Positions 1,084 through 36,257 of a stretch of 37,207 nt of DNA are shown here, piece after piece. A model generated the notes under the pieces. That model had not been told where the DNA came from. It was given only the letters and a program-made list of their open reading frames with translations, and made no database searches. Positions within the stretch are counted from its first letter, which is position 1. The number at the start of each line of letters is the position of its first letter. The stretch covers positions 157,075-194,281 of the forward strand of contig NZ_JACJSC010000008.1 in NCBI RefSeq assembly GCF_014697575.1. Reading direction: 5' to 3'. Origin of the DNA: Planktothrix sp. FACHB-1365 (GTDB lineage Bacteria > Cyanobacteriota > Cyanobacteriia > Cyanobacteriales > Microcoleaceae). The translations under genes were made by a program, and so were the position numbers.

Positions 1084-2151
1084 ATGAAAAATTCTCGATC
1101 GCCTTCCAGAACCGATACCTGGGTGGGAAAAGTAATAGATCAATTTCCCACTTTTATTATCGGATTTTTTACGGGCTCACTGATCACAGTTTATGGAACT
1201 TTGACTCAGATTGATTTATTAAGCCATCTAAATGCTGATCCTAATATCCTAAATTTTTATCAACAATTATTGGGATTATCTCATGATAAATCAGAACAAA
1301 AAAAACAATATAGAGGATATATTGAAAAGCTTAATATTAGTGTAAATCCCACTACATTAATCATTCATGTTTTGCCGAATTCTATTTGTGAATCTGCTAT
1401 TTATGAAGGAGATCGTGTACAAGTTTTACCTCCTGTTGAGGTAATTGGTCAACAAAATTCTGCTCAAGATACAGAATTTAATTTATTGAAACAGAGGGTC
1501 AATCAAATTATTAGTGATGGGTTTGGGTCTATTGAAGTTGTCACTCCTGAAAATCAATTAGCACTGATTGAAATTAATCTACTCAATGAAGAACAAAATT
1601 GTGTGAGGAAACCTAAATATATTCAAGAGTTAGAAAAGCTCCTAGAGCAGAAAAACTGGAAAGCAGCCGATCAAAAAACAAATCAGGTTTTACTGAAAAT
1701 TACAAATCGAGAAAGTGTTGGTTATTTGGATGAAGATGCTATTCAAAAAATGTCTTGCTCCTATTTAAGAACGATTGATCAGTTATGGAAAAAATACTCA
1801 GGAGGATTATTTGGATTTAGTGTTCAAAAGCGAATTTTTGTAGAAACAAAAAATCAATTAAAAGATGATGCTTTAAACCGATATGATCCTAATGCTTATA
1901 TTCATTTTACGGATTTAGTACGCTGGATTGAATCGGGAAAAAATGGTAAGGAGAAATGGAAAAATTATAATGAATTAACTTTTTCTTTAGAAGCACCGGA
2001 AGGTCATCTTCCTCGTTTAAATCAACTTGAGAAAGGAATGAAAATGGAATTCAATTATCAGCTTTTTTCTCCCAATGCGCTTCCCTTGTCTTCTCAAGAA
2101 ATTAAAGCCAGAACTTTATTTTTTACACGAGTTGATACTTGTAAACTTTAA
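1084..2151 (+). CDS. GUN4-like domain protein with N-terminal hydrophobic segment
   Basis: C-terminal region WKAADQKTNQVLL...DEDAIQKMSCSYLRTIDQLWKKYSGGLFGFSVQKRIF matches the conserved GUN4 domain signature (W..AD..T....L, DL.tID.LW.kyS.G.FGFSVQk.Iw). ATG start at 1084. Confidence 0.55.
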   Translation: MKNSRSPSRTDTWVGKVIDQFPTFIIGFFTGSLITVYGTLTQIDLLSHLNADPNILNFYQQLLGLSHDKSEQKKQYRGYIEKLNISVNPTTLIIHVLPNSICESAIYEGDRVQVLPPVEVIGQQNSAQDTEFNLLKQRVNQIISDGFGSIEVVTPENQLALIEINLLNEEQNCVRKPKYIQELEKLLEQKNWKAADQKTNQVLLKITNRESVGYLDEDAIQKMSCSYLRTIDQLWKKYSGGLFGFSVQKRIFVETKNQLKDDALNRYDPNAYIHFTDLVRWIESGKNGKEKWKNYNELTFSLEAPEGHLPRLNQLEKGMKMEFNYQLFSPNALPLSSQEIKARTLFFTRVDTCKL

Positions 2152-3915: not shown

Positions 3916-5103
3916 TCAGGGCAAATCTCCCCAAATATTTTGATAGCGTTCTACCATTTGGCAAGCGGCTTGATACTGTTTTTGGGCGAGTTCGGGTGGA
4001 GATAAAACCTGTGCTAAGTTTAAATATTTATTGACCCAAATCATAAATTCATTGAGAGATCGAGAAGGTAAATTAATTTTATAATCAACAGATAAGAGTT
4101 TTCCCTGTTTATCTTTAATCACCTTAATTTGTTGACGAATATGGCGACGATCCCCTTCTAAAATAAAATTAGTAGCGGGAGGAAAAAAGCGAACATGAAC
4201 CAATTCTAAAGGCAGTTCTCCAGCCAGTTCCTGTTGTTGTTCGACTAAATTACCTAAATTTAATCCCCATCCTTGGTTTAATAATTGATGCGCTTTCTGT
4301 AAATTATCATATTGTTCTTGGAGAGGGCGAGTTTGAGACAACAATTGGCAATAATTTCCATAGCGGTTCATTCGACCAATTGTGAGTTGACCGTTTTCGC
4401 AGGATTCATACAGCAAATACCAAGCAATATTAAAATGAATTAGTTGTAAGGGCCAAATTTTTACTAATCCAATTTGTCCCGAATTATAGGGGTCACTAAA
4501 CCGGGAAATTTCAATAGCTTTTCCAGTGAGAATTGCATTTTCAATCTGATCTAATTGATGAAAAAGAGTATGTTGCACATTGCCCATTTCCAACATTTCA
4601 TCCGGGTCAGTCCACACAATAGAACGGTTGAGTTGTTGTCGAACAGGATAGAAAAATTCTCCTTTTCGTTCTAAGTTAACCCCTCGCAATCGCTTTTCTA
4701 AAGTTTCACAAATTCGTCTAGTTTTGGAATCCGCTTGATATTGACTCAAGGAAACTAACAGTTGAAACGCAACTTGTAATTCCTCCCAACTCATCACACC
4801 CGTTCCGAGATAATAACCCCAACGGTACATTCGCTGTTCAAGAATGCTGTAACGCCGTAGGGTTTCGATATCTTTGCGAATTGTTGGTAAAGCTGGATAA
4901 CCCGCAGGAAGGTTAATTTTCAGTTCAGAGGCAAGCTGCTGTAAGTGATATTGGACATCTGATAGAGCATTCCGATGTTCTCCTTTCTGAGTTGGGGGAG
5001 TGTTACCAACCCCTGGATATTGAACCAAGGTGGCAATTAATAACATCAATCGCTCAAAGGCTTGTTGATCTGAATAGGGATGGAGTGTTGGCTTTTTAGC
5101 CAT
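3916..5103 (-). CDS. WYL-domain protein, putative transcriptional regulator of the adjacent cmr operon, divergently transcribed
   Basis: Central segment RFSDPYNSGQIGLVKIWPLQLIHFNIAWYLLYESCENGQLTIGRMNRY fits the WYL-domain pattern (W-Y-L followed by G..r.FrL.Ri). ATG at 5101-5103. It sits head-to-head with cas10/cmr2 across a 325-bp gap. Confidence 0.55.
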   Translation of the reverse strand: MAKKPTLHPYSDQQAFERLMLLIATLVQYPGVGNTPPTQKGEHRNALSDVQYHLQQLASELKINLPAGYPALPTIRKDIETLRRYSILEQRMYRWGYYLGTGVMSWEELQVAFQLLVSLSQYQADSKTRRICETLEKRLRGVNLERKGEFFYPVRQQLNRSIVWTDPDEMLEMGNVQHTLFHQLDQIENAILTGKAIEISRFSDPYNSGQIGLVKIWPLQLIHFNIAWYLLYESCENGQLTIGRMNRYGNYCQLLSQTRPLQEQYDNLQKAHQLLNQGWGLNLGNLVEQQQELAGELPLELVHVRFFPPATNFILEGDRRHIRQQIKVIKDKQGKLLSVDYKINLPSRSLNEFMIWVNKYLNLAQVLSPPELAQKQYQAACQMVERYQNIWGDLP

Positions 5104-5470
5104 ATTCCGTAGGATAATAGTCGTAATAAGCCAATATTGACATGAAGCTTGTGATTTCTTAAAAAATTTAGATTTTTCAAGGATTATTGAGTTTTGTAAC
5201 TTAAACGATAAATATTGTGAAATTCAAGACAGAACCTATCACAGGTTGGTAAAGTTAGTAAATAGTTAATTTGTGAGAACATCACATTTGTTGTCCCCCT
5301 AGATTTAACAAACTTGCAAATTCTGGCTAAGTCCAGTTAATTCACTCATCACACGCATTACCATCGACTGTAGAAGCACTGTTCTGCACAGCTACCCCCT
5401 GCGAATACTCTTAGATATTAAATTCAATTTGTCTTGTTTTAATGAGACAAAACTAACCAGCTATGAAATT
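5104..5470. promoter_or_regulatory. Divergent promoter/operator region between the WYL regulator gene and cas10/cmr2
   Basis: Non-coding AT-rich gap between two divergent genes. No specific -10/-35 boxes claimed. Confidence 0.3.
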
Positions 5471-7174
5471 ATGTCTATGACTGAAGGATATACAGCCATA
5501 AGTTTTGCACCTGTGCAGGGCTTCATCGAAAAATCCCGTAAACTGAGGGATTTATATGGAGCCTCGCTGATTCTATCTTACTTAAGTTCCCGAATAGTAC
5601 AAGAGGCATTATGTTCAGGATTAGAGGTGATTTCTCCGGGATTACCGACAATTCAAAAAGGAATGCCCAACCGAATTTTAATTAAAGGAAAATTTGAGCG
5701 CAATGATGTGCAGAATATCCTATTAAACGAATGGCAAAAGATTTTGATAATTTGCCGGGAGTGGATAGAAGACAATATCGGTATCCCAAAAACTGAGTAT
5801 TATTGGTCACAACCAGAAGACCAAATTGGCAAACATAAAGGAGAATGGGAACGCTGGGGAAGCCATACCTGGGAAATATTTTGGGGATATGGTGCATCAA
5901 TCCCAGATGCAATGGAAGACTTAGAAACTCGTAAATTAAAACGAGATTGGATTGGGATTAATTGGATGGGTGAAAGTTCAAGTTTAACTGGAACCGATGC
6001 GATTGCTTGGCATCAATTAGGAAAGGAATCTAACCAACCCGGACAAGCACTAACCCCAGACCAAAAAGACCAACTTGAACTATTTTATAGGCGCTTATCT
6101 TGGTTATTAGATAATCCAGAGGATAGACTTCAAAAATCTAGTTTATCTTTGCAGGCGTTAAGGGAGTACGAAGAAAAAAACCCTGACACCAGTGGTAAAT
6201 ATCTTGCTCCGAATGAACGGTTGAGTATTCCCGAACTGGTGAAACGTTTAGTCACTTATGACAAAATTGCTGATCAGATTGGGATGGCAAAAATTAAACA
6301 AAAATCCTCCGATCCAGAGTTTAAGGAAATTAACCGAAACGCAGGATACTGGACAGGATGGTTTATGGGTGATGGTGATGAAGTTGGGGATAAACTTCAG
6401 CTACTCGCCACTCAATCTGAAGATCAGATGAAGAAGTTCACCCTTAAAATGAGAGAATGGGGGAAAGAATTTGAAGCAAAAACAGACTTATTTCCCCCCG
6501 GAAAAGGACGGGTTATTTATGCCGGGGGTGATGATTTTTTAGGGGTGCTTTACAGTGAGCAAACCGATAAAAATTCCAATTCCAATAAACTCAAACTGAC
6601 GGAAGTATTAAATTGGTTGTTACATTTACAGGAGCATTGGGAGGAACTGCAAGCCAGTATTAAAGAAGATCTCAACTTTGACTTTACCTTTAGTGTGGGT
6701 TTTGTTTGGGCAGGTCATCAAGTTCCCCAACGGGATATTTTACAACACTGTCGAGAAGCGGAAAAACGTTCAAAAAGTTTAGAACGCGATCGCTTAACCA
6801 TTCGAGTAGTTTTTAATAGCGGTCAGTTTGTACAGTGGACTTGCCCTTGGAAAGATTTAGACATTTTGAAGAAATATCGCGATCGCGATGGCAAAACCTG
6901 GGGAGAAAATCCCAATTGGACTCACATTTACAATGATTGGGCACAATTAAAAGCCCGTCATGGGATTTGCTTAGAGGAAACGGTTAAACGTTCTGTGAAG
7001 AAAGACATTCCTTTAGCGTTATTTAATTTGTATTTCGATCAAATCGGAGAAAGATTTAATGAGGAAAATAGATGGGATGAAATAGCAGGAGAGAACAAAA
7101 ATTTAGCAATTGTAAATTGGCTTAATGATCTGGTACAAGTAGGTTGGCAATTATGTCACAATTCCAATATGTAA
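5471..7174 (+). CDS. cmr2: Cas10/Cmr2, type III-B large subunit; HD nuclease domain absent, cyclase GGDD motif present
   Basis: N-terminus ISFAPVQGFIEKSRKLRDLYGASLILSYL matches the start of the first Palm/cyclase-like domain of Cas10 (lfsigPVQeFIa.aRkt.DLwagS.lLSyL). GGDD motif in IYAGGDDFLGVL. No H-D dipeptide region precedes it. Only about 570-580 aa. The ORF is open from a TTG at 5429; first ATG at 5471. Confidence 0.85.
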   Translation: MSMTEGYTAISFAPVQGFIEKSRKLRDLYGASLILSYLSSRIVQEALCSGLEVISPGLPTIQKGMPNRILIKGKFERNDVQNILLNEWQKILIICREWIEDNIGIPKTEYYWSQPEDQIGKHKGEWERWGSHTWEIFWGYGASIPDAMEDLETRKLKRDWIGINWMGESSSLTGTDAIAWHQLGKESNQPGQALTPDQKDQLELFYRRLSWLLDNPEDRLQKSSLSLQALREYEEKNPDTSGKYLAPNERLSIPELVKRLVTYDKIADQIGMAKIKQKSSDPEFKEINRNAGYWTGWFMGDGDEVGDKLQLLATQSEDQMKKFTLKMREWGKEFEAKTDLFPPGKGRVIYAGGDDFLGVLYSEQTDKNSNSNKLKLTEVLNWLLHLQEHWEELQASIKEDLNFDFTFSVGFVWAGHQVPQRDILQHCREAEKRSKSLERDRLTIRVVFNSGQFVQWTCPWKDLDILKKYRDRDGKTWGENPNWTHIYNDWAQLKARHGICLEETVKRSVKKDIPLALFNLYFDQIGERFNEENRWDEIAGENKNLAIVNWLNDLVQVGWQLCHNSNM

Positions 7175-8229
7175 TTACTGTTTCCCCCTTGGGGTTTATG
7201 TATGGCAGTGCCGGAGGGTTTCTGTCTCCAGAAAACCTAGTGGGACGCTCAGGTGCTAAATTCCCACCTGATACAGGAGCAATCGCAGGACTATTTTTTA
7301 ATGCGAATCAAAGTGATCGGGAAACCTTGAGAAATAATCTGATTGTTGCTGGCCCCTTTTGGGCAAAACAAGATAGTCCTGATAATTTCTATGTTCCCAT
7401 TCCTTGGACTAAGGTAATGGCAGAGAAAGATAATGATGAATGGCAATTTGTCAAAAAACAAAATTCATCAGAATCGATTGAATCTAATGGTGATCAATGG
7501 TGTCTGGGTCAACATCAATGGGAACGTCAAAAGAAAGAGGTAAAACCGCAGTATAGTTGGCAGTTAATTAAGGATTGGAATTTACCTGCGGATGAACTCA
7601 AAGCCAGAAATGCGATCGCAAAAGTTCCTTGGCATTTTGTTCCGATGTTACATCCCAAAATGAAAGACAACGAGCGGCACGTTGTTGAAGAAGATGGACT
7701 ATTTTTAGAAAATGCCGTGCAGTTAGATCAAGACTATTGCCTCGTTTATCTATCTAACTATGAACTAGCCAATGGATGGTATCGGTTTGGTGGTGAAGGA
7801 CATTTAGTAGAAGTTGAAACCCATAAGCTCTCAGATAACCCTAAAATCAACCAACTTCTAGGGCAAAAAATTAACCATGCTTTTGCGCTCATTACCCCTG
7901 GTGTTTGGGGGTCAAATAAACTTTCCTACCGTTACCCTCGTCACCCCGATTTTCCCCGCCAAGGGATGAAAATGCTCACCGATAAAGCCGTTGCTTACCG
8001 TTATCGTTTGGGTCATTCCAGAACGAATCAACAACCCCAAGCGGAAAGCGGACGACTCAGCCGAGGACGTTATGCTGTCCCCGCCGGAAGCGTTTACGTC
8101 TTGAAACATCCTTTGAATTTAACGTGGTGGGAGTTTCCTGACGAATGGTTTCCCAAAGAAGGATTTTCCCTCAAACACTTGGGATCTGCTTTATGTTTAC
8201 CCATTAGTATTCAAGGAGTACCCGAATAA
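7153..8229 (+). CDS. cmr3: Cmr3 (Cas5-group RAMP)
   Basis: Second gene of the operon. N-terminus VITVSPLGFMYGSAGGFLSPE...FPPDTGAIAGLF matches the Cmr3 N-terminal signature (sPl.frdGrPF ... FPPsPstlaGAl). Overlaps cmr2 by about 22 nt and ends in TAATG with cmr4. The listed ORF starts at a TTG at 7144; first ATG at 7153. Confidence 0.7.
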   Translation: MSQFQYVITVSPLGFMYGSAGGFLSPENLVGRSGAKFPPDTGAIAGLFFNANQSDRETLRNNLIVAGPFWAKQDSPDNFYVPIPWTKVMAEKDNDEWQFVKKQNSSESIESNGDQWCLGQHQWERQKKEVKPQYSWQLIKDWNLPADELKARNAIAKVPWHFVPMLHPKMKDNERHVVEEDGLFLENAVQLDQDYCLVYLSNYELANGWYRFGGEGHLVEVETHKLSDNPKINQLLGQKINHAFALITPGVWGSNKLSYRYPRHPDFPRQGMKMLTDKAVAYRYRLGHSRTNQQPQAESGRLSRGRYAVPAGSVYVLKHPLNLTWWEFPDEWFPKEGFSLKHLGSALCLPISIQGVPE

Positions 8230-9047
8230 TGTACAGCAAAGCCTACGGAATTATTGAAGCACTGGCCCCTCTCCATGTCGGGGCAACGGCTGGAGAAGAA
8301 ACTGGAAATCTTAATCTGATTTTTCGTGACCAATTTACCCAGACGGGAATCATCCCTGGTAGTTCGATTCGGGGACGGTTTCGCGCCGATATGCGAGATC
8401 GAGAAGCCGGGGAAGAACAACGTTGGTATGGACATGAATCCGTTGATGGTCGTCCTGATGGGGGGACAACCGAAGCCTTAGTTAAGTTTGAATACGCTTC
8501 TCTGGTTTGGTTTCCGGTCTTTTGTCCAGGTCAACCAGTGGTTTGGGTTAGTTGTCCTTTCCTCTTAAAGCGGTTTAAACGGATTGCAGGAATTACGGCG
8601 GATACTCCTGCTCCTTATACTGCCCAGAGTGGTTTACAAGGTCGCCAAATTGAAACCGGAGGGAAAATTCTATTTTTTAACTTAGGGTTTCTCAAAATTG
8701 AACATAACCAGAACTTATCCGATTGGATTCCCAAAGGAACAAGTTTAGAGGGGAATAAATTAGTCGTAGTTGATGATAACGATATTGCTATGTTACATGA
8801 TATGGCACTCTATCGCCAAAGCCGGGTTAAACTGTTGGATGAAATGAAAAAAGTGGATACAGAAAAGGGCGCGTTTTTCAATACAGAAGCGTTACCTGAA
8901 GGCAGTATTTTAGTGTTTCCGATTGCTTTAAAAGAAACAGGTTGGAAACCGTTTGGCGAAGCAGAAAATTCAGCAGATTTATATTTTGGCGGTTTAGAAT
9001 CCATTGGTTTTGGTCATTGTCGGGTTTCACTCCAAGGAGATTATTAA
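8229..9047 (+). CDS. cmr4: Cmr4 (Cas7 backbone RAMP)
   Basis: LAPLHVGATAG...GIIPGSSIRGRFR is the canonical Cmr4/Csm3 RAMP N-terminal motif with G-rich loop. About 272 aa. Confidence 0.85.
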   Translation: MYSKAYGIIEALAPLHVGATAGEETGNLNLIFRDQFTQTGIIPGSSIRGRFRADMRDREAGEEQRWYGHESVDGRPDGGTTEALVKFEYASLVWFPVFCPGQPVVWVSCPFLLKRFKRIAGITADTPAPYTAQSGLQGRQIETGGKILFFNLGFLKIEHNQNLSDWIPKGTSLEGNKLVVVDDNDIAMLHDMALYRQSRVKLLDEMKKVDTEKGAFFNTEALPEGSILVFPIALKETGWKPFGEAENSADLYFGGLESIGFGHCRVSLQGDY

Positions 9048-9049
9048 TT

Positions 9050-9457
9050 ATGAGTTGGGAATCTTATGAATTGGATCGGATTGCTCAAAAACTGGTTCTG
9101 CAAGCACGGAAACGGGAACCCCAATCCCTAAATCAATCCTATAAAATGCGAATGGCTGTCGCTTATGGGTTAGAACGATTTTGGGGTGAACATTTACGGT
9201 TAAAAGGCAGAGAGGAAACCAAATCAATTTTTTGGAAAGAAACTTGGGATGCTTTGCAAACCATTATGGGAAAAGCTGGGGTAAAAATTCCGAATGATGC
9301 CGTTAATCCCACTAATACCCAACAAATTCAAACCATGTCTGAAAAGCTTTGGGCTTTATCCGTGGAAGATCAACGAATTGCGATCGCAGTTTTAACGCAA
9401 CTTTGTGATTGTATTGTTTGGTGGACACAACGTTATAAAACAGGGCGGAGAGATTAA
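9050..9457 (+). CDS. cmr5: Cmr5 (Cas11 small subunit), about 135 aa
   Basis: Position between cmr4 and cmr6, size and helical composition. ATG at 9050 preceded by AAGGAGA. Upstream part of the listed ORF 8942-9457 overlaps cmr4 and is rejected. Confidence 0.55.
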   Translation: MSWESYELDRIAQKLVLQARKREPQSLNQSYKMRMAVAYGLERFWGEHLRLKGREETKSIFWKETWDALQTIMGKAGVKIPNDAVNPTNTQQIQTMSEKLWALSVEDQRIAIAVLTQLCDCIVWWTQRYKTGRRD

Positions 9458-9460
9458 CCC

Positions 9461-11200
9461 ATGACATCAATTCCTAGTGCTTATAAAAAAATCCCGATGA
9501 TGTTTCGCGCTCAAATTCCAGGGCGCAGTCAACTGCAATATTTAGATCCTCAGAAAAAAAGCCAAGGCGAAGATCAGGACGTGGAACGTTGGGTTGATGA
9601 ATGGATTGATCAAGCGGAGTTTATCTCTGAGGAAAACACTCAGGATATTGCAACCGCTACTTATCAAGCCAAGTCCTATGACATCTCTTGGCGGTTTGTC
9701 ACCAATGGCGGACAGGATGATGGAATGCTTCGCCCTGTAATTGGGGCTTCGGGGATTCCCTTTTATCCGGGTAGCAGTATGAAGGGGGCTTTTCGCCAAG
9801 CTTGTCAGCAAGCGGAAGATGCAGGTAAAGTCCCCCCAGGAACTTGTAATTATTATTGTGGGGATGAGTTAGACATCACCCCAGGGTTATTGCGGTTTCA
9901 GGGTGCTTACCCGATTAACGATTGGACAGAGGGTTTACTCGATTTAGTTCACCCGCAACAAGGTTGGCAGTTGATGACTCAGAACACCAATCAAAAACCG
10001 CAGGGGGAGAGTCCCTATGCCCAAATTTCCCTTTATAAGCCCAGGCTTCGGTTTGCCATTTCTAGCCCGAAATCGTTGTCAACCGATCAATGGGCGCAAA
10101 TTTGGGAAATTTGGCAACGAGCGCTGGCAATGGGTCTAGGATCAAAAGTTTCCACAGGCTACGGACAAATTAATCAAACGTCCCATCCGGTTCTGTTTCG
10201 GGCAAAACTCAAAGGTCAGGGACAAGCTGCCAAATTAATTGACGGGAGTGGCGAGTTTCGTCCTAATATTTTCCGCGCTGCTTTGCGAGGTCATGCGTTA
10301 AGAATTTTTGGAGGTTTAACGGATAGTAGAACCGCAGAACAATTAGTTGAGGATTTGTTGGGTGGTATTCAGCAAAGAGATGCAACCGTTGGGTTATTAG
10401 GGTTTCAGTTTCAGGAATCTAATTTAGAGATAAAATCCTTTGGTTCTGGAAATTATGCTCAACCTGCTTATAAGGTTGAAGGAGAATTAACTTGGTTTTT
10501 AGCGAAACCTTTAGCGGACTCAAATCAAGAAGCGATTTTGAAAAAATTAGTCGCAAAGTTAATGCAGTTTGCAATGATTTTTGGCGGATTTGGCAAATCT
10601 TGGCGACGGGCTGATCACCGCAAGTTTTTCCCAGACTATTATGAAAATGGCTACAAAGCTTTAATTGGTTGTCACTGGCAATGGTTAGGAGAAAATAGTC
10701 AACGTCGCTATGTCAAAGTCAGAAAATTAGATCAGGTGGGTAGCTTTTTAGATGGGGTGCGAGCAACTGCTAAAGAATGGATACAATCTCAAAATAAACC
10801 TTTACAAGAAAACCAATGGGCAAATAATTGGCGAGAGTCATGGCATCCGAGTAATGTTCAAGTTTGGGGTCGAATTGCTGAAGATGCTGACAATAGTATA
10901 GCGGTGCGTTGGTTTCATCAACCTTATCAAGAAAGAATCCAAAACTTTCAGCTAGAAAAAACAATTTACAACACTCATATTACAGGAAGAATGGGGCAAA
11001 TTAGTTTGATTTGTCATCGAATGTATCCTGCAATTAAACTTCTCAACAATCCAGAAGATCCTAACAAGCCGATTGTCAGACAAACTCCTAAATTTTTGGA
11101 ATTAATTACCATTTTTCCAGATAATTCACCAGAATGTAGAGATTTTTTGAATTTTTTAAAGCAAAATCCAGAAGACTTTCAACAACTTTGGGGGAACTAA
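9461..11200 (+). CDS. cmr6/cmr1: Cmr6-Cmr1 fusion protein (two Cas7-family RAMP modules in one 579-aa polypeptide)
   Basis: Residues 1-245 carry Cmr6 signatures: SWRFVTNGG...GIPFYPGSSMKGAFR, LRFQGAYP, and C-terminal LAMGLGSKVSTGYGQ. Residues 250-579 carry Cmr1-like signatures: RPNIFRAALRGHALRIFGG...EDLLGG and G-rich loop MIFGGFGKSWRR. No separate cmr1 gene in the window. Confidence 0.7.
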   Translation: MTSIPSAYKKIPMMFRAQIPGRSQLQYLDPQKKSQGEDQDVERWVDEWIDQAEFISEENTQDIATATYQAKSYDISWRFVTNGGQDDGMLRPVIGASGIPFYPGSSMKGAFRQACQQAEDAGKVPPGTCNYYCGDELDITPGLLRFQGAYPINDWTEGLLDLVHPQQGWQLMTQNTNQKPQGESPYAQISLYKPRLRFAISSPKSLSTDQWAQIWEIWQRALAMGLGSKVSTGYGQINQTSHPVLFRAKLKGQGQAAKLIDGSGEFRPNIFRAALRGHALRIFGGLTDSRTAEQLVEDLLGGIQQRDATVGLLGFQFQESNLEIKSFGSGNYAQPAYKVEGELTWFLAKPLADSNQEAILKKLVAKLMQFAMIFGGFGKSWRRADHRKFFPDYYENGYKALIGCHWQWLGENSQRRYVKVRKLDQVGSFLDGVRATAKEWIQSQNKPLQENQWANNWRESWHPSNVQVWGRIAEDADNSIAVRWFHQPYQERIQNFQLEKTIYNTHITGRMGQISLICHRMYPAIKLLNNPEDPNKPIVRQTPKFLELITIFPDNSPECRDFLNFLKQNPEDFQQLWGN

Positions 11201-11204
11201 AATT

Positions 11205-12845
11205 ATGATTTTATGGATAGTGACCATTGGTAGCAGTGATGTTCAGCTTGATAGTGATAAAGCGAATCGAGACAAGGGCAGAACTGAAAAACAACGCAGT
11301 AATATCGTTTGGCGAAATTGGTATAATGATGATATTCTATATGAATGTTATGATGTTTCGTTTGAGCCTCAACCTATTTTCCAAGATGTTAAAGAATCTT
11401 ATCGCATCGTGGCTCGAATTTTAGGGAAGGTTTATCAATTAAGTTCAGAAAAAGTTAAACAACAAATTGAAACCTATTTAACGTTTCCGTTGCTGAGTAA
11501 CTTTGTTGAAAAGTTGAAAACGATTGAAGTTCCTGATGCAATCGCCTTTATTTTAACGGATCAATCACAGATTTTTCAAGACAATGCTCAGAGACGACAA
11601 CCTAAATCTCCCTATTGGCAAGATACCTGTGAATTAAAACCGATTCTTGAGAGTTATTTTAAACAAGAATTCCCCGGAGTTGAACTGATTCCTCTACAAT
11701 TGTCTCCACCCGATAAACCGGGTTTAGATGATTGGGATCGGGTTTTGAATTTAGTTCAGAATGAATTCGCTAAAATTCAATTAGAGCCGGATATTGTTTA
11801 TGTGAGTCATCAAGCCAGTACCCCGGCAATTTCTTCAGCAGTTCAGTTTGAAAGTTTGACTTTATTCGGTCAACGAGTCAAATTTTTAATTAGTAATGAA
11901 CAAGATTCTAACTTAACTCGTTTTATTGATCGGTCATCTTATCTCAAAAGAATTCGCCGACAAGAGGCTTTGGCATTACTCAAAAATTATGATTATTCAG
12001 GGGTTTACCAATTACTTAAAGAGGATATACAGCAATCTCAAAAAGCCATAGAACAACAAACTTTAGAGAAATTAGAGATGGCGATGCTCTGGAATTATGC
12101 TAAGTTTAAAGAGTTTTTGGAGCGTCGATTAAATTTATCTCAAGAAGCGACAGAAATCTGGTGGGATGAAAATTGGTGGCAACCTGTGTATGAAGCTGCT
12201 TATTTAGCAAAAATTCGATTTAAACAGAGTAATATGGTTGAGGCATTTTTTCACGGGTTTCGAGCCGTTGAAGCCGCATTTTTAGAATGGGGGAAACATG
12301 AATTTAAAGCTCATATCAAACTCGACCTCGACAATGAACGTTCTTATTTACAACCTTCGATCCTTGATGATCCTAAAAATTATTTTAAGGGGGCAAAAAT
12401 CAACCTAGAAAATCCTAAAAAAACGAATAGCCTTGGAAAATTAAAGATTAAATTTCAAGAGCTTGCAGTCAAACTAGAAACACTGGGAGAAAACGACCAA
12501 AAACCTAAAGGAATACTCCTTGCTGGCGAAGATTTATACACGCTATTTAGAATTGAAAAACCAAACTGCCAAAACATAGTTGATTTTAAACGTTTTTGGG
12601 CGCAAGACGGTATTTGTGACAAGCGAAATAAAAATTTTCATCAATTACAAGGTTTGTCAGAAGTTGAAGTTTTTAAAGACTGGGAAGTAGAAAATTTAGA
12701 GCAATGGGAAAAACGAGTTTTAGTTTATCTAAACTTTATTGCTAAAGACAATCTACCTCAAGAATTTACATCTCTTGAAGAAGCGAGTTTAATGGCAAAA
12801 CTTCACCAAGAGATTGAAGAAGCGATCGCATCTTATCAACCTTAA
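11205..12845 (+). CDS. csx1: Csx1-like CARF-HEPN ribonuclease (cOA-activated effector), 546 aa
   Basis: N-terminal CARF-like beta strand plus loop MILWIVTIGSSD; later IAFILTDQS and VYVSHQASTPAISSA. C-terminal HEPN R-X4-H motif in CDKRNKNFHQLQG. Only 4 nt after cmr6/1. Confidence 0.65.
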   Translation: MILWIVTIGSSDVQLDSDKANRDKGRTEKQRSNIVWRNWYNDDILYECYDVSFEPQPIFQDVKESYRIVARILGKVYQLSSEKVKQQIETYLTFPLLSNFVEKLKTIEVPDAIAFILTDQSQIFQDNAQRRQPKSPYWQDTCELKPILESYFKQEFPGVELIPLQLSPPDKPGLDDWDRVLNLVQNEFAKIQLEPDIVYVSHQASTPAISSAVQFESLTLFGQRVKFLISNEQDSNLTRFIDRSSYLKRIRRQEALALLKNYDYSGVYQLLKEDIQQSQKAIEQQTLEKLEMAMLWNYAKFKEFLERRLNLSQEATEIWWDENWWQPVYEAAYLAKIRFKQSNMVEAFFHGFRAVEAAFLEWGKHEFKAHIKLDLDNERSYLQPSILDDPKNYFKGAKINLENPKKTNSLGKLKIKFQELAVKLETLGENDQKPKGILLAGEDLYTLFRIEKPNCQNIVDFKRFWAQDGICDKRNKNFHQLQGLSEVEVFKDWEVENLEQWEKRVLVYLNFIAKDNLPQEFTSLEEASLMAKLHQEIEEAIASYQP

Positions 12846-12949: not shown

Positions 12950-14224
12950 ATGACAAGTATTGTTTTATCCTTTGTTGGCAACCAAGATCCCTTTTCTGAC
13001 CAGACCACAGAAGAAGGTTCTATTGTTACTTTAATTCGGTATTTAATGGCAGAAAAAAATACAATTAATCGGGTTATCCTATTACATACAGCCGAAACCC
13101 AAGAACGAGCAGAAGCGACTAAGGATTGGTTAAAAGATGAACCTTTAAATTTATCTCTTGATCAGATTGATATTATTCCGGTTGAAGATATTCTTTCCCA
13201 AGATCCTGTTAATTTATTGGCGGCTGTTCAAGAAGCTAGAAAAGGATTAGATTTAGCGAAACAATATCTACAAAAAGGTGATCATTTAGAGTTTAATGCG
13301 TCATCGGGTACACCTGTAATGAAGTCAGCTTGGAGTATTTTACAAGCGGCTGGTTACGCGCCTCATAGTTCGGTTTGGCAAGTTAGAAACCCTAAACAAA
13401 TGCAGTCGGGACAACCGAGAGTTTTTTCGACAAATGTGGAGGTTTTAAAAAATGAATTTGATTTAAAAGTAATTCAACAACAAATTTTAGATTATAATTA
13501 TAGTGGAGCTTTAGCAACAGTCAAAGTTAGTAATTTATCGACAGAATTGATTGAAGCCTTGTTAAAATATGCTGATTATCGGATGGCGTTTGATTTTGAT
13601 TTAGCATTTACGGCGATTCAACCTTGGAAATCTGATTTAGAATCTCAGTGGATTTCGGAAATTTCTAGTTTACGTCAAAAAAATAAGCCTGCTTTATTAA
13701 AAGAAGTTTATTTTAAGGCGTTTATGAAACTTAAAAATCAACAATATGCTGATTTTTTGGTTGATGTGTTTAGATTTCAAGAAGGGTTTCTTAGATTTGT
13801 TGTAGAAGAAACCCTGAAAGTAAAACTTCCTAAAAAAAGGTCAGAAATTGATCAGTTCTGGGCAACTCTCAAGCGAATAGAAGGGGGTCGTTTTTATAAA
13901 AGCTTAGAAAATTATCGTTTACCTAATGGCAAAAGCTTAGATCTTAATGGTTTTATGAGTCGGTTAATTATGATGATTATTCTGGAAATATCGCCCCAAT
14001 TCTGCCCCCTCTATTCACAAATAGAAACGTTAAATGAATATTGTGAACAACGTAATCAATTTATTCATGATTTTGAGGGAATTTCGGAAATTGATGAACC
14101 GGAGAAAGTTAAAAAAAATATGCGAGAATTATTGCAAGTGATTACTCATGTTCCGAAAATAAATCCTTATGATATTCTCAACCAAAAGATATTTAATTTG
14201 TTAGAATCTAGGGTTAAAAATTAA
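12950..14224 (+). CDS. csm6: Csm6-like CARF-HEPN ribonuclease (second cOA-activated effector), 424 aa
   Basis: CARF signatures IVLSFVGNQDPF and EFNASSGTPVMKSAWSIL (N/D-x-S-x-GT-P-M motif). HEPN R-X4-H in CEQRNQFIHDFEG near the C-terminus. Size typical of Csm6. Confidence 0.65.
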   Translation: MTSIVLSFVGNQDPFSDQTTEEGSIVTLIRYLMAEKNTINRVILLHTAETQERAEATKDWLKDEPLNLSLDQIDIIPVEDILSQDPVNLLAAVQEARKGLDLAKQYLQKGDHLEFNASSGTPVMKSAWSILQAAGYAPHSSVWQVRNPKQMQSGQPRVFSTNVEVLKNEFDLKVIQQQILDYNYSGALATVKVSNLSTELIEALLKYADYRMAFDFDLAFTAIQPWKSDLESQWISEISSLRQKNKPALLKEVYFKAFMKLKNQQYADFLVDVFRFQEGFLRFVVEETLKVKLPKKRSEIDQFWATLKRIEGGRFYKSLENYRLPNGKSLDLNGFMSRLIMMIILEISPQFCPLYSQIETLNEYCEQRNQFIHDFEGISEIDEPEKVKKNMRELLQVITHVPKINPYDILNQKIFNLLESRVKN

Positions 14225-14315: not shown

Positions 14316-14597
14316 ATGTATATTTCTAGTCGTGCCATTGTTGTTCGGAATTTTGCGATCGCTATTGTCAATGGAACAATTACCTTAATTATCCTGTTAA
14401 TTGCTCCAGTGGGATTAGCCGCCGTAATTAGTAATACTTTTTTAGTGACAATTGCCACTTTTTTTACCGCCACTATAGCTGATGGTATTATTCGATTTCT
14501 GCAACCTTCTCGCTCTATGGGTGAAATTCCTTTACATCAAAATACGACCTATTCTTCTGAATTAGATTCTCGTTCATCCCATGAGATTGATCGCTAA
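14316..14597 (+). CDS. Small hydrophobic protein (93 aa, about two TM helices) inside the cas operon
   Basis: Strong RBS AAGGAG 7 nt before the ATG. The body is a long hydrophobic stretch; the C-terminal roughly one-third is polar (PSRSMGEIPLHQNTTYSSELDSRSSHEIDR). Stop lies 3 nt before cas1. Confidence 0.45.
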   Translation: MYISSRAIVVRNFAIAIVNGTITLIILLIAPVGLAAVISNTFLVTIATFFTATIADGIIRFLQPSRSMGEIPLHQNTTYSSELDSRSSHEIDR

Positions 14598-14600
14598 ATT

Positions 14601-15593
14601 ATGTTAACATTGTATGTGTCTGAACAAGGATGTTATCTAACTTTAGAAGCCGAAAGTTTGTTAATCAAAAAGGGGAAGGAAGTCTTAGCAGAAGCTCAAA
14701 TTCCCCTGCTGGAACAAGTGTTAATTTTTGGTAAATCTCAAGTGACGACTCAAGCGATTCGAGCTTGTTTATTTCGTAATGTTCCGATAGCTTATTTATC
14801 TCGCATGGGATATTGTTATGGTCGAATTTTACCGGTTGAACGGGGATATCGGCATCTATCTCGCTATCAACAACAACTGACTAGAGTAGACCGTTTAATT
14901 GTAGCTCGTCGCATTGTACAAGCGAAACTGAAAAATAGTCGAGTGATTCTCCAACGCCAAGCTCGTCGTCAATCTTCTGAGGCGATTACTTTTGCAATTC
15001 AAAGTTTAAATCATTTGATGGAAAAGGTAATAGAAGCAGAAAGTTGGGAACGATTAATGGGGTTAGAAGGTGCAGCGGCTTCTCAATATTTTTCGGCTTT
15101 GGGTGACTGTTTAACTCATCCTAAGTTTGTGTTTACGGTGCGATCGCGTCGTCCCCCTGGAAATCCAGTCAATGCTTTATTGAGTTTTGGGTATCAAGTT
15201 CTGTGGAATCATCTTTTAAGTTTAATTGAACTTCAGGGACTTGACCCTTATTTCGGGTGTTTACATCAAGGAACTGAACGTCATGCTGCTTTGGCTTCGG
15301 ATTTAATTGAGGAGTTTAGAGCACCGATTGTGGATTCATTGGTGATGTATTTAATTAATCGCAATATGATTGATGCAAATACGGATTTTACTTACCATGA
15401 TGGCGGTTGTTTTCTGAATGATTCGGGTCGAGTTAAATTCTTAAAGGCGTTTCTGCAACGAATGGAGGAAAAGTTAACAACTGTGGCGGGAGAAAATCAA
15501 CCTCGATGGGATATTTTGACTCAACAGGTGAAGCTTTTTAAGCAATTTGTTTACAACCCGATTGAAGGATACCAACCTTATGAGTTGCGCTGA
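14601..15593 (+). CDS. cas1: Cas1 integrase
   Basis: LYVSEQGCYL...IPLLEQVLIFGKSQVTTQAIRACL...PIAYLSRMGY is a typical Cas1 N-terminus. 330 aa. ATGA overlap with cas2. Directly upstream of the CRISPR leader. Confidence 0.9.
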   Translation: MLTLYVSEQGCYLTLEAESLLIKKGKEVLAEAQIPLLEQVLIFGKSQVTTQAIRACLFRNVPIAYLSRMGYCYGRILPVERGYRHLSRYQQQLTRVDRLIVARRIVQAKLKNSRVILQRQARRQSSEAITFAIQSLNHLMEKVIEAESWERLMGLEGAAASQYFSALGDCLTHPKFVFTVRSRRPPGNPVNALLSFGYQVLWNHLLSLIELQGLDPYFGCLHQGTERHAALASDLIEEFRAPIVDSLVMYLINRNMIDANTDFTYHDGGCFLNDSGRVKFLKAFLQRMEEKLTTVAGENQPRWDILTQQVKLFKQFVYNPIEGYQPYELR

Positions 15594-15874
15594 TGTTATT
15601 TTATATTGTTGCCTATGATATTCCTTGTGATAAACGTCGTCGCAAAGTGGCGAATTTATTAGAGGGATATGGAAAGCGGGTTCAATATTCGGTGTTTGAG
15701 TGTGTTCTACCTGAATCAAAATATCTTGAGTTACAGAAACGCTTGAAAAAACAGGTGAATTTGGCGGAAGATAATCTGCGGTTTTATCCTCTTTCTCGCC
15801 ATACTTGGGGAAGTGTGGAAACTTGGGGTCAGGGGCCAAAGATTACTGAGTATCCGAGTTCGTTGATTGTTTAA
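15593..15874 (+). CDS. cas2: Cas2
   Basis: MLFYIVAYDIPCDKRRRKVANLLEGYGKRVQYSVFEC is the canonical Cas2 N-terminus (vYDi..d+rR.kv.k.L..yG.RvQySVF). 93 aa. Confidence 0.88.
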   Translation: MLFYIVAYDIPCDKRRRKVANLLEGYGKRVQYSVFECVLPESKYLELQKRLKKQVNLAEDNLRFYPLSRHTWGSVETWGQGPKITEYPSSLIV

Positions 15875-16190: not shown

Positions 16191-18975
16191 CTCCCCACTC
16201 GCTGGGGAAATTAATTGATTGGAAACTTCAATGATCTCTGTTGTCTTGAAGAAGTCTATACTAGCTCCCCACTCGCTGGGGAAATTAATTGATTGGAAAC
16301 TGCACTAGAGAACACAGCGCCATCAGGGTACATACGTACCTCCCCACTCGCTGGGGAAATTAATTGATTGGAAACCTTGAGGTACCTAATTTAGTTAAGA
16401 GTGTATATACTCCCCACTCGCTGGGGAAATTAATTGATTGGAAACACAATCCCTCCTTATGAGATAGCAATTATAGGGAGGGAGATTAAGGACTCCCCAC
16501 TCGCTGGGGAAATTAATTGATTGGAAACACAGGAGGTAATAACTTCACTGCAATTGAAGTTATCTCCCCACTCGCTGGGGAAATTAATTGATTGGAAACG
16601 AAGGATAATGCGATTCAATAGATAGATATAAGAGAGGTCTCCCCACTCGCTGGGGAAATTAATTGATTGGAAACGGTAATATCAAATGACTATTCTTCTT
16701 ACTTACTCCCCACTCGCTGGGGAAATTAATTGATTGGAAACATCAAGAATCTGGCAGTCGGCTGCCTTTACGTGGTCTCCCCACTCGCTGGGGAAATTAA
16801 TTGATTGGAAACTTGTAGCGAGTTATATACATCAATAGCTTCTTGGACTCCCCACTCGCTGGGGAAATTAATTGATTGGAAACTAGGGTAAATCTGACAT
16901 ATCAATTCTCCTATACTCTCCCCACTCGCTGGGGAAATTAATTGATTGGAAACGAGGTCATTGCCATCGAACTTACCGAACTCCAAGTAGCTCCCCACTC
17001 GCTGGGGAAATTAATTGATTGGAAACTCGTATTCATCGTAAAGGTCTTCTGGTTCCCACCGCTCCCTCCCCACTCGCTGGGGAAATTAATTGATTGGAAA
17101 CGGTGAACTGCTTGACTCCAAAGTGGGTGAAACCTTCAACTCCCCACTCGCTGGGGAAATTAATTGATTGGAAACTAGGAACTTATGTAGTTCGGCTGTG
17201 TAAGTCTTTAGCTCCCCACTCGCTGGGGAAATTAATTGATTGGAAACAACCACTCAAGAATGGTTTCACTTGCACCAAGAGGCATCGTGACTCCCCACTC
17301 GCTGGGGAAATTAATTGATTGGAAACTCTCCCATTCAATGGGAAGACTTAGATATTTCCACCTCCCCACTCGCTGGGGAAATTAATTGATTGGAAACTTA
17401 ACTATCCCTTTATATTGTTAGGTCATTTCACATTCCCCTCCCCACTCGCTGGGGAAATTAATTGATTGGAAACTGGCACTCTTCTACATGACCTCCAATC
17501 TGAATCTGTTTCCACTCCCCACTCGCTGGGGAAATTAATTGATTGGAAACCTTGTTCAGTAATACCTTTAGTAGATGTTAAGTACTCCCCACTCGCTGGG
17601 GAAATTAATTGATTGGAAACCGGAGTTGTTGTCCTCAGTTAATTATTGAAAATGATCAACACTCCCCACTCGCTGGGGAAATTAATTGATTGGAAACGAG
17701 TGCCACAATTTCATCGTGGCTGATTTCTTGTGCATTAATCTCCCCACTCGCTGGGGAAATTAATTGATTGGAAACCTGAAATAGAGAGAGTTATCTCTCT
17801 AAGGAACTCATGTTCCATCTTGACTCCCCACTCGCTGGGGAAATTAATTGATTGGAAACCAGGACGAGCGAGAAGTTCAGCTGCACGTTTTTGTTGCCCT
17901 TCTCCCCACTCGCTGGGGAAATTAATTGATTGGAAACTGTGTAGGGATAACTAACTCCCTGAAGGATTGCCCCTCCCCACTCGCTGGGGAAATTAATTGA
18001 TTGGAAACAAAAGAGAGAAGGTTAGATTGGAACCCACCCCAACTCCCCACTCGCTGGGGAAATTAATTGATTGGAAACTCTTAAAGACAATTTGATTGTT
18101 GAGAGACTCACATTCGTCTGGGTCTCCCCACTCGCTGGGGAAATTAATTGATTGGAAACACTGCAGAAGCTGTACCTAACCACCACTCTAAGGTGGCATC
18201 ATATCTCCCCACTCGCTGGGGAAATTAATTGATTGGAAACTAGAAGTAGAGGGAAGAGGTGAAGAGTAGAAATAGTCTCCCCACTCGCTGGGGAAATTAA
18301 TTGATTGGAAACCAGTGAGTAGTCGGTAACAAGACATTAAGTTCTCAACTCCCCACTCGCTGGGGAAATTAATTGATTGGAAACAAGCATGATGGCCAAA
18401 GGCTTAAGCCTTAAAGCTGTACTCCCCACTCGCTGGGGAAATTAATTGATTGGAAACTTATAGCACCATAATGGTGAGTTGATCCTGGCATAGCTCCCCA
18501 CTCGCTGGGGAAATTAATTGATTGGAAACAAGGAGAAGAGATGTTTATTAGCACCACCACGACCCTCCCCACTCGCTGGGGAAATTAATTGATTGGAAAC
18601 ACTTCTTCTTCTGTTTGAAAGTACCAATTCCAGTCAACATCTCCCCACTCGCTGGGGAAATTAATTGATTGGAAACACCTCCCACTTGACCACTTCTGAG
18701 TGGCAAAGCAGGACTCCCCACTCGCTGGGGAAATTAATTGATTGGAAACAACGGATTCACATTACAAGTGTTGATTATTTTCATTCTCCCCACTCGCTGG
18801 GGAAATTAATTGATTGGAAACAGGGGATCTGACAGGTTTTTATAATGAATTTGTAACTCATTGACTCCCCACTCGCTGGGGAAATTAATTGATTGGAAAC
18901 AGGTTTGGGAAGCGATCGCGATATTCCGACCACTTCCCAGATCTCTCTACTTGCTAGGGAAATTCTATAAAATCC
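16191..18975 (+). CRISPR. CRISPR array with 37 identical 36-nt repeats (CTCCCCACTCGCTGGGGAAATTAATTGATTGGAAAC) plus one degenerate terminal repeat, and 37 spacers of about 34-47 nt
   Basis: Counted by eye: repeat starts at 16191, 16265, 16340 ... 18865. Degenerate copy CTCTCTACTTGCTAGGGAAATTCTATAAAATCC at about 18943-18975. Repeat has a CCCCA/TGGGG stem and ends in GAAAC (a type III/I-like 5' handle). Transcribed on the + strand away from cas2. Confidence 0.95.
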
Positions 18976-20104: not shown

Positions 20105-20206
20105 TTAGCCCCGTAGTCAGCCCTTCAGGGCTGTCTTTCCAGACAGAGGCGTGAACGCCTCACTACAATTTAATGGATAGAGGCGTGAACGCCTTACTAC
20201 AATTTA
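20105..20206. repeat. Hairpin CAGCCC-TTCA-GGGCTG followed by two tandem 28-nt copies of AGAGGCGTGAACGCCT(C/T)ACTACAATTTA, each with an AGGCG-TGAA-CGCCT hairpin
   Basis: Direct reading. First hairpin belongs to the same family as 313-376. Copies at 20144-20171 and 20179-20206 differ by 1 nt. Located between two minus-strand genes. Confidence 0.6.
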
Positions 20207-20857
20207 ACGGAAAAGGATATCCGATTGTAAGGTTAAATTCAGGTCCTGACTGGGACGAACCACCACAACATCGACTTTGCGACGTCCGACGAATACTCCG
20301 GTAATGGCACCGAGTCCCGCACCCCCTAACACTTCTTCGGTCGCGATCGCATTATCGCCAACAATAGCACCAATCGCCGTCGCTGCTGCTGCTCCAATGG
20401 CGGCTCCCCCTAGAATAGACCGGGCTGAAGCTCCTTTGCGAATGGTTTCTGTGCGAGTCACCACTTGAGAATTAGCATCTAAGCGAAATCGTTGTCCAGC
20501 ACTAATAATCACTTCATTAGCCACAAATTGAGATCCCCCGGAAGCGGGTTTTAATTGTCCGACAATTTCAGCCCCTGCGGGAATCCAGACCCGTCCTTGG
20601 CTGGTGACAACATTTTGTGCTACCGTCATCGTTAAAGGAACGGTTTCATTGGGCATCACCACAATTTTTTCAGCTTCTGGATATTCGACTGAAATTACAG
20701 TTCCTGCTAAGATTCTATCCCGTTGTAAGGTATTGGGAAAGGATTGAGCCGTGGCTGGAATTCTTGGCAGTAAAGGTATAGCCACGGCTGTTGTTAAACC
20801 GAATGCTAGGAAAATTGACAATCCTGAACGTGAAAATTGAGAACTGAACATAAACAC
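20204..20857 (-). CDS. Secreted or membrane protein with glycine-zipper region
   Basis: N-terminal signal-like hydrophobic segment. C-terminal GGAAIGAAAATAIGAIVGD...GGAGLGAITGVFVG glycine-zipper (GxxxG repeats). Confidence 0.45.
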   Translation of the reverse strand: MFMFSSQFSRSGLSIFLAFGLTTAVAIPLLPRIPATAQSFPNTLQRDRILAGTVISVEYPEAEKIVVMPNETVPLTMTVAQNVVTSQGRVWIPAGAEIVGQLKPASGGSQFVANEVIISAGQRFRLDANSQVVTRTETIRKGASARSILGGAAIGAAAATAIGAIVGDNAIATEEVLGGAGLGAITGVFVGRRKVDVVVVRPSQDLNLTLQSDILFR

Positions 20858-24841: not shown

Positions 24842-24869
24842 CTGTTCCCTGTTCCCTGTTCCCTGTTCC
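24842..24869. repeat. Heptanucleotide tandem repeat (CTGTTCC) x4, similar in kind to the heptamer STRR repeats described in filamentous cyanobacteria
   Basis: Direct reading: actgttccctgttccctgttccctgttccc between convergent genes. Confidence 0.7.
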
Positions 24870-24871
24870 CT

Positions 24872-35586: not shown

Positions 35587-35668
35587 TTTTTGTATAGCCT
35601 TTATCGGGTAAATAGTCTGTATATTACTCATTTGATAACTGGTAAATTACGAAATAAGTAGGTGTTCA

Positions 35669-35878
35669 ATGAATAGCCACAAAGTAACATTAGAAATTTC
35701 GGAAACCCTTTTTGAGCAACTCTCTTTACTAGCTGACCTAAAAGAAGAATCAATAGAATATTTAGCAATTGAAATTATTGCTGCTAAATTACCTTGTTTA
35801 ATTCAAAGAGAGAGTCAATTGAAGCAATTATTAGAAGCAATCAAACCTGATAGCATTCATAGTGAAATTGGGTTATAA
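35669..35878 (+). CDS. Putative antitoxin of the downstream MazF/PemK toxin (69 aa)
   Basis: Small acidic protein immediately upstream of the toxin gene (6-nt gap). The position is characteristic of type II TA antitoxins. No fold-specific motif recognised. Confidence 0.45.
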   Translation: MNSHKVTLEISETLFEQLSLLADLKEESIEYLAIEIIAAKLPCLIQRESQLKQLLEAIKPDSIHSEIGL

Positions 35879-35884
35879 TAATAT

Positions 35885-36247: not shown

Positions 36248-36257
36248 TTAAATAAAT

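Follow-up and report, generated by a model that had tools for sequence, protein, structure and literature searches.

The run of cmr genes in Planktothrix sp. FACHB-1365 ends with a reading frame that is long enough for two RAMP proteins, and no ordinary cmr6 or cmr1 lies beside it. The question raised by this locus is whether the frame is a genuine fusion of the two genes and, if so, what the fused product does in the effector complex. The first-pass annotation had proposed that Cmr6 and Cmr1 are fused here in one polypeptide of 579 amino acids and that a separate cmr1 is missing. The frame occupies positions 9461..11200 of the forward strand of the window, by which the whole stretch of 37,207 nucleotides analysed is meant. 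It starts with ATG and consists of 579 codons and a stop codon, without an internal stop. The product is 100% identical to a protein of the same organism that is named "RAMP superfamily protein" by NCBI. The gene begins 3 nt past the stop codon of cmr5, the following gene begins 4 nt past its own stop codon, and the operon around it is tightly packed. When both halves of the protein and both halves of Sll7085, its counterpart in Synechocystis, were compared with the window by tblastn in six frames, the fusion gene was the only coding region recovered. Nothing else resembling Cmr1 or Cmr6 was found, and the claim that a separate cmr1 is missing holds for the window.

In canonical Cmr complexes, Cmr4 and Cmr5 build the backbone, with Cmr2-Cmr3 closing off one end and Cmr6 together with Cmr1 the other (PMC4333402), which agrees with the earlier statement that Cmr1 and Cmr6 are neighbours at one end of the complex. 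Cmr1 is described as binding both the target RNA and the crRNA (PMC5737701). In the canonical III-B systems of P. furiosus, A. fulgidus and S. islandicus (3x1l, 4w8v, 4l6u, 4w8z, 6s6b), Cmr6 and Cmr1 are two polypeptides encoded by two genes, whereas in the window both would lie in a single chain, joined through about 7 residues, and the sequence similarity to the canonical proteins is near or below detection.

A fusion of this kind has a precedent. The term Cmr6-Cmr1 (or Cmr1-Cmr6) fusion is applied in the literature to Sll7085, a protein of the CRISPR3 system on the plasmid pSYSA of Synechocystis PCC 6803; such a fusion is regarded as typical of subtype III-Bv, a subtype presented as being without Cas6 and using RNase E (PMC10243305; PMC6546367). 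In Sll7085 itself, Cmr6 profiles match residues 151-297 and Cmr1 profiles match residues 343-606. The window protein and Sll7085 are collinear in BLASTP across the junction, with residues 55-406 of the former aligned to residues 112-468 of the latter at 22% identity and an E value of 3e-12. In both proteins the Cmr6 domain precedes the Cmr1 domain in one polypeptide, both genes come after cmr2-cmr3-cmr4-cmr5, and both products match the PADLOC profile PDLC01212. The window locus and the pSYSA locus are both without cas6, and both have csx18-cas1-cas2 adjoining the array in the same order. The two proteins differ in length (579 amino acids in the window, 649 in Sll7085); at the N terminus the window protein has a shorter extension with no relation to that of Sll7085, and its final ~170 residues cannot be aligned. 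The Cas10 proteins differ as well, that of the window having 581 amino acids and Sll7090 979. The accessory genes of pSYSA are other ones, whereas in the window the fusion is followed directly by two CARF-HEPN genes.

The features of the locus are collected in Table 1. Cas10/Cmr2, Cmr3, Cmr4 and Cmr5, the companions expected of a III-Bv fusion, are all encoded beside it. The true start of cas10 is probably an ATG located about 14-16 codons downstream of the TTG. The cyclase motif GGDD is kept in the window Cas10, and its match to Sll7090 starts at about residue 218 of the latter; the ~200 N-terminal residues of Sll7090, which are taken to be the HD region, are without a counterpart. The putative regulator at 3916..5103 has no match in Pfam or NCBIfam, and many related loci have an orthologue in the corresponding place. 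Scans with Pfam, NCBIfam and PADLOC revealed no match to Cas6 among the ORFs of the 37-kb window.

Table 1. Coordinates of the genes, protein domains and CRISPR array of the locus (positions in the window).
Feature	Position	Strand	Evidence
Putative regulator, divergent, PADLOC "WYL/Csx1 (CARF+WYL C)"	3916..5103	-	PDLC01036 E 1.1e-54
cas10/cmr2, short form, 581 aa from TTG	5429..7174	+	Pfam Cas10-Cmr2_palm2, Cmr2_N; PADLOC Cas10b PDLC02051 E 2.7e-204
cmr3	7144..8229	+	Pfam Cas_Cmr3 E 5.7e-10
cmr4, backbone Cas7	8229..9047	+	TIGR02580 E 2.3e-22; profile match to PfCmr4 E 1.4e-22
cmr5, 135 aa from ATG	9050..9457	+	PADLOC Cmr5 PDLC01476 E 2.5e-66
cmr6-cmr1 fusion gene	9461..11200	+	ORF; PADLOC PDLC01212; collinear BLASTP with Sll7085
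N-terminal extension, residues 1-60	9461..9640	+	
Cmr6-like RAMP domain, residues ~61-240	9641..10180	+	PGSSMKGAFR 9767-9796; G-rich loop GLGSKVSTGYGQ 10133-10168
Junction INQTSHP, residues 237-243	10169..10189	+	between Cmr6 G-rich loop and first Cmr1 strand
Cmr1 part, ferredoxin-like domain 1, residues ~244-404	10190..10672	+	RPNIFRAALRGHALRIFGG 10259-10315; G-rich loop GGFGKSWRR 10583-10609
Cmr1 part, domain 2, residues ~405-579	10673..11197	+	AF2 elements
CARF-HEPN effector, Csx1-like	11205..12845	+	PADLOC CARF_HEPN PDLC01795 E 1.2e-130; Csx1 E 6.1e-113
Second CARF-HEPN effector, Csm6-like	12950..14224	+	PADLOC PDLC01806 E 9.5e-172; TIGR02672 Csm6 E 2.7e-25
csx18	14316-14597	+	PADLOC Csx18 E 7.6e-32
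cas1	14601-15593	+	Pfam Cas1 E 5.9e-90
cas2	15593-15874	+	Pfam Cas2 E 6.7e-25
CRISPR array, 37 identical 36-nt repeats CTCCCCACTCGCTGGGGAAATTAATTGATTGGAAAC, spacers 31-48 nt	16191..18900	+	

The motifs that had been quoted as hallmarks of Cmr6 and Cmr1 are all present. The N-terminal half contains WRFVTNGG (residues 77-84), IPFYPGSSMKGAFR (99-112), FQGAYP (146-151) and GLGSKVSTGYGQ (225-236), and the C-terminal half contains RPNIFRAALRGHALRIFGG (267-285) and FGGFGKSWRR (374-383). In an alignment of 73 sequences, the residues of these motifs are mostly invariant or at least 90% conserved, among them G104, S105, S106, K108, G109, F111 and R112, then G225, G227, G233 and Y234, and in the second half R267, R272, R276, R281 and the stretch G375-R383. 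P12, R16, R22 and Q24 of the N-terminal extension are invariant in the same alignment. The extension has a pLDDT below 50 at residues 1-23 of the AF2 model and cannot be aligned to Sll7085, in which the match begins at residue 112.

PDLC01212, which PADLOC labels "Cmr6", covers residues 7-577 with an E value of 3.6e-208, so a profile of the whole fused family already exists in PADLOC. A comparison of the separate halves with family profiles, suggested in the first-pass annotation, gave the expected result for the N-terminal half only: residues 97-238 are matched by four generic PADLOC Cmr6 profiles (E 4e-7 to 2e-4), and the C-terminal half alone matches no NCBIfam family and no Cmr1 profile, its sole PADLOC match being PDLC01212. 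The cut-off of the Cmr6 family TIGR01898 is not reached in the NCBIfam scan (23.7 bits vs 51.1, over residues 97-121 only), nor is that of Pfam RAMPs PF03787 (21.7 bits vs 22.1). In the predicted model, the N-terminal domain has a RAMP fold with the PGSSxKG start of the helix and the C-terminal G-rich loop, and solved Cmr6 is the closest structure.

These data bear on the identity of the first domain, which might be a generic or backbone Cas7 of the Cmr4/Csm3 kind, so that the protein would be a Cas7-Cmr1 fusion nearer to the logic of III-D and III-E. Such an identity is improbable. The four Cmr6 profiles span residues 97-238, whereas Csm3 and Cmr4 profiles reach the PGSSxKG stretch only. Both the C-terminal GxGxxxxxGYG loop and the location of the gene behind cmr5 are as in cmr6, and a separate, bona fide cmr4 is found upstream. 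Furthermore, in a Nostoc relative (C052) that is 51% identical to Sll7085, the homologous part clears the TIGR01898 cut-off with 54.5 bits vs 51.1.

The assignment of the C-terminal half to Cmr1 is supported by the fold. The AF2 model of the fusion protein has a pLDDT of 80.8 and a pTM of 0.82, and Foldseek matches it to Cmr1 (4l6u_B, E 5.9e-7) and to Cmr6 (3x1l_H, E 6.6e-6). The C-terminal part of the model displays an RRM/RAMP fold, as had been anticipated when a structure prediction was proposed as a check. No secondary structure element is present in the junction region, from the helix at 208-223 to the strand at 244-255. Domain 2 of the Cmr1 part comprises strands at 405-408, 467-473, 517-551 and 574-578 and helices at 423-443 and 557-567, with a pLDDT mostly above 85. 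An alignment of 251 residues to the 298-residue Cmr1 AF1868 was obtained, a length for which both C-terminal domains are required. We read residues ~244-404 and ~405-579 of the model as two ferredoxin-like domains arranged as in Cmr1; the domain boundaries in Table 1 are likewise our reading of the predicted structure. Two ferredoxin-like (RRM) domains, a G-rich loop and superposition on solved Cmr1 are all found in the model. Cas6, like Cmr1, is a two-domain ferredoxin-like RAMP that has G-rich loops, and cas6 is missing from the locus. For these reasons the double RRM might be thought a Cas6-derived domain that processes crRNA or binds the repeat and replaces the missing cas6, an origin that we consider very improbable next to Cmr1. 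At the level of sequence, the link of the C-terminal half to Cmr1 is transitive and passes through Sll7085 (TIGR01894 24.7 bits, cut-off 28.65; PADLOC Cmr1 E 4.5e-10). Sequence searches of the PDB with the single protein and with a profile of 73 sequences gave nothing significant, and no solved structure was found in this way for either fusion clade.

An ordinary cmr6 and an ordinary cmr1 could also have been merged into one long ORF by a frameshift of sequencing or assembly. The ORF is far from what chance would produce. Its product has 1177 homologues in the database at E<=1e-3, and of the best 120 nearly all measure 556-595 amino acids. Related loci were collected from one genome per GTDB species, which gave 408 loci, and the best 80 of the 408 were kept. 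In these 80 the match spans residues ~1-577 of the query, with the N- and C-terminal halves contiguous. The order cmr2-cmr3-cmr4-cmr5-fusion, established by tblastn with the Cas proteins of the window, is preserved almost everywhere among them. A search of related cyanobacterial genomes for the same fusion had been suggested, and 79 of the best 80 loci are titled cyanobacteria; the remaining one (L058), labelled Acetobacteraceae, is probably a mis-binned contig.

For the C-terminal 339 amino acids only, 172 relatives were found in a search of 1.84 billion representative proteins. The long ones are nearly all of 530-750 amino acids and carry the match in their C-terminal part, and these relatives are therefore fused as well. 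Five short or oddly placed hits were inspected as possible standalone Cmr1 relatives, and none proved to be one. P0133 starts within the Cmr6 G-rich loop (VSAGYGQ) and is therefore a truncated call, P0125 and P0206 are without a Met start, and the start of P0126 falls inside the Cmr6 domain. The fifth, P0151 (348 amino acids), appeared to stand alone and prompted a check of the frameshift explanation; it is an artefact of gene calling at a scaffold gap, a stretch of N in the contig, and the ORF is fused when read across this gap. No support for a frameshift was found. The halves are contiguous and in frame in all of the best 80 of 408 loci, which come from independent genomes, and dozens of full-length proteins of 556-595 amino acids are present in the database. 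An artefact of this sort is exceedingly improbable, and the claim of a single ORF stands.

The intact ORF, the fold matches and the collinearity with Sll7085 together uphold the reading of the 579-residue protein as Cmr6 and Cmr1 in one chain. We consider it very likely that the product serves as the fused head subunit (Cmr6-Cmr1) of a cyanobacterial Cmr effector complex of the III-Bv kind. The fused architecture is already published for III-Bv; the window protein is a divergent member, and its identification is a correct annotation and not a discovery. A tblastn search of a plasmid collection with the window protein at E 1e-5 did not recover pSYSA, and for this reason the window type and the Sll7085 type appear, as judged by sequence, to be separate clades. 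The fusion is ~640-650 amino acids long and Cas10 ~980-1000 in the Sll7085-type clade; the corresponding values in the window-type clade are ~560-590 and 581, the latter with GGDD.

Multi-Cas7 proteins of III-Dv and III-E systems fuse repeating, Csm3-like Cas7 domains of the backbone, some of which are catalytic, and the III-E fusion replaces the whole complex. Compared with Cas7-2x (Synechocystis III-Dv, 8s9t/8s9x chain D) and Cas7-11/gRAMP (III-E), the window protein fuses only the two non-repeating subunits of the cap, and a separate, multi-copy Cmr4 is retained.

The repeats also connect the locus to that of Synechocystis. The window repeat CTCCCCACTCGCTGGGGAAATTAATTGATTGGAAAC is identical at 31 of the 36 positions to the CRISPR3 repeat GTCTCCACTCGTAGGAGAAATTAATTGATTGGAAAC (Table 1 of PMC3575380). 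Common to both are the last 20 nt, within which lies an unusual handle of 13 nt, AUUGAUUGGAAAC. Positions 4 and 16 covary, from T-A in CRISPR3 to C-G in the window, and the hairpin is kept. Both repeats are predicted to fold into a 5' hairpin followed by an unpaired AU-rich tail. The 5' stem-loop, the single-stranded AU-rich 3' part and the 13/14-nt AUUGAUUGGAAAC of a III-Bv repeat are all found in the sequence and predicted fold of the window repeat. The exact tail was absent from the 84 related loci searched, in some of which the array may lie beyond the flanks that were covered. The sole array inspected among them, that of the Alkalinema locus, has the same hairpin and a slightly different tail, CCCAATTGAATGGAAAC. 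In Synechocystis sp. B12, the CRISPR3 repeat of strain 6803 together with a window-type effector was considered as a case of module swapping; this was dropped, the plasmid carrying both types of module.

Cmr6 and Cmr1 cap canonical complexes, and Cmr1 binds target RNA and crRNA there; by analogy, the 579-residue protein is most likely the single-chain cap at the 3' end of the complex, where it would sit as one copy beside the last Cmr4. [quoted passage not shown] Canonical complexes have the two subunits side by side; joining them in one chain therefore sets their ratio at 1:1. The packed operon would ensure that the fusion is co-expressed with the short GGDD Cas10, Cmr3, Cmr4 and Cmr5. Judging from the gene content, Cas10 would produce cyclic oligoadenylate once target RNA is bound, and this product would in turn activate the two CARF-HEPN RNases whose genes directly follow the fusion. 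The CRISPR3-type repeat of Synechocystis is processed by RNase E and RNase J (PMC12464536). The window has no cas6, and the 3' 20 nt of its repeat are the same as in CRISPR3; the crRNA of the window array may likewise be matured by the host RNase E, together with RNase J.

The Cmr4 subunit of the locus was compared with its relatives by HMMER alignment of the window protein and of a two-clade profile to solved Cmr4 structures. The loop reads GNLNLIFRD in the window and GVVD26QPIQRE in P. furiosus. Between the Gly and the Arg-acid pair, the residues are NLNLIF in the window, NLLGIA in Sll7087 and VVD26QPIQ in P. furiosus, and no acidic residue falls at the D26 position under either placement of the one-residue gap. 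Asn occupies the aligned D26 position in 69 of the 70 orthologues of the window clade, and Tyr takes the place of D86 in the window Cmr4. The canonical slicer aspartate of Cmr4 is absent in both clades. In P. furiosus, target RNA cleavage is abolished by D26A and D26N and is reduced by D86A (PMC4333402; PMC4762429). Slicer-dead Cmr4 is described as inducing autoimmunity in S. islandicus (PMC9368842). The alignment suggests that slicing of target RNA by the window Cmr4 may be altered or absent. The invariant GGQDDG loop of the Cmr6 domain (residues 83-88) was considered as a relocated slicer site and was rejected; an acidic residue is present in the same loop of Sll7085 and of DtCmr6 too.

A more far-reaching possibility is that the locus belongs to a streamlined branch of III-Bv, set apart from the prototype in Synechocystis and having a fused cap, a short GGDD Cas10 without the presumed HD region and a Cmr4 without the slicer aspartate. 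In that case the complex would sense RNA without cleaving it, and cyclic oligoadenylate signalling to the two CARF-HEPN RNases would be its sole output. This proposal is tentative and, on balance, unlikely. If it were true, shut-off could not depend on the cutting of target RNA. The missing slicer aspartate of both clades, if confirmed, would be of greater consequence, and the apparently slicer-less Cmr4 combined with a minimal Cas10 is the only lead of some interest here.

The main value of the analysis lies in the annotation. The protein, called "RAMP superfamily protein" by NCBI and "Cmr6" by JGI, becomes a fused Cmr6-Cmr1 cap, and by this reading the missing cmr1 is explained. The design known from CRISPR3, with a fused cap, no Cas6 and a repeat of the RNase E type, very likely reaches a second, widespread clade of cyanobacterial systems that has a minimal Cas10.

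Cmr4 of the window lacks the canonical slicer aspartate: when it is aligned to Cmr4 of P. furiosus (PfCmr4), the loop GVVD26QPIQRE of the latter corresponds to GNLNLIFRD, and asparagine occupies the position aligned to the aspartate in 69 of 70 Cmr4 orthologues. The aspartate is likewise absent from Sll7087, the Cmr4 of the III-Bv (CRISPR3) system on pSYSA of Synechocystis PCC 6803, in which the corresponding loop reads GNLLGIARE. Both the D26A and the D26N mutations of PfCmr4 abolish RNA cleavage (PMC4333402; PMC4762429). The position of PfCmr4 D86 is occupied by tyrosine in the window protein.

The Cas10 (Cmr2) subunit is short. It begins at the equivalent of residue ~218 of the 979-residue Synechocystis Cas10, Sll7090, whose ~200 N-terminal residues, taken to be a putative HD region, have no counterpart in it. 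The GGDD cyclase motif is retained, and the protein is matched by a dedicated PADLOC profile, PDLC02051. This match starts only at residue 20, so that the TTG start listed for the gene is probably too far upstream.

The N-terminal extension of the Cmr6-Cmr1 fusion protein is predicted to be disordered in spite of the invariant residues P12, R16, R22 and Q24. The Synechocystis fusion protein, Sll7085, has a longer extension, to which it bears no relation. Window-type and 6803-like regions are found together on a plasmid of Synechocystis sp. B12 (CP101712.1; loci L001 and L087 among the related loci fetched), where a second, window-type cmr module encodes a fusion protein with 47% identity to that of the window. 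The CRISPR3 region of this plasmid shares with pSYSA an identical repeat, csx18 and an aspartic-protease/peptidase gene. Many genes of CP101712.1 are split into pieces, probably by assembly frameshifts.

Features of the window and of the related locus L085
Feature	Coordinates	Strand	Remarks
GUN4-domain protein	1084-2151		C-terminal part also matches PADLOC PD-T4-6, E 6.5e-33
395-aa protein	3916-5103	-	PADLOC 'WYL/Csx1 (CARF+WYL C)', E 1e-54
cas10/cmr2	5429-7174		only 581 aa
cmr4	8229-9047
N-terminal extension of fusion protein	9461-9640		residues 1-60
First CARF-HEPN (Csx1/Csm6-like) gene	11205-12845		directly after fusion gene
Second CARF-HEPN (Csx1/Csm6-like) gene	12950-14224		in tandem with the first, differing from it
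Possible Mokosh-like cluster	32134-37019
MkoA-like kinase-helicase	within 32134-37019		1150 aa; PADLOC E 1.5e-272
PemK/MazF-like toxin gene	35885-36247		within possible cluster
ORF matching N-terminal part of MkoB	36258-37019		within possible cluster
sll7087 (Cmr4)	L085 10631-11410

Elsewhere in the window, three tabulated genes lie in a possible Mokosh-like defence cluster. The PD-T4-6 match of the GUN4-domain protein probably reflects a shared domain and not a defence gene. Two copies of a 34-nt unit, AGAGGCGTGAACGCCTCACTACAATTTAACGGAT, which includes a short GC-rich inverted repeat, are located between two minus-strand genes (20145-20211), and 4.3 copies of a CTGTTCC heptamer are found apart from it (24842-24871).

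Downstream of the fusion gene, the position of the first CARF-HEPN gene is kept in many related loci, and that of the second in few only. Upstream of cas10 and divergent from it is the gene of the 395-residue protein, which has no match in Pfam and NCBIfam scans and has the same placement in several related loci. The PADLOC match together with this conserved divergent placement indicates that the protein is likely a regulator responsive to cyclic oligoadenylate.
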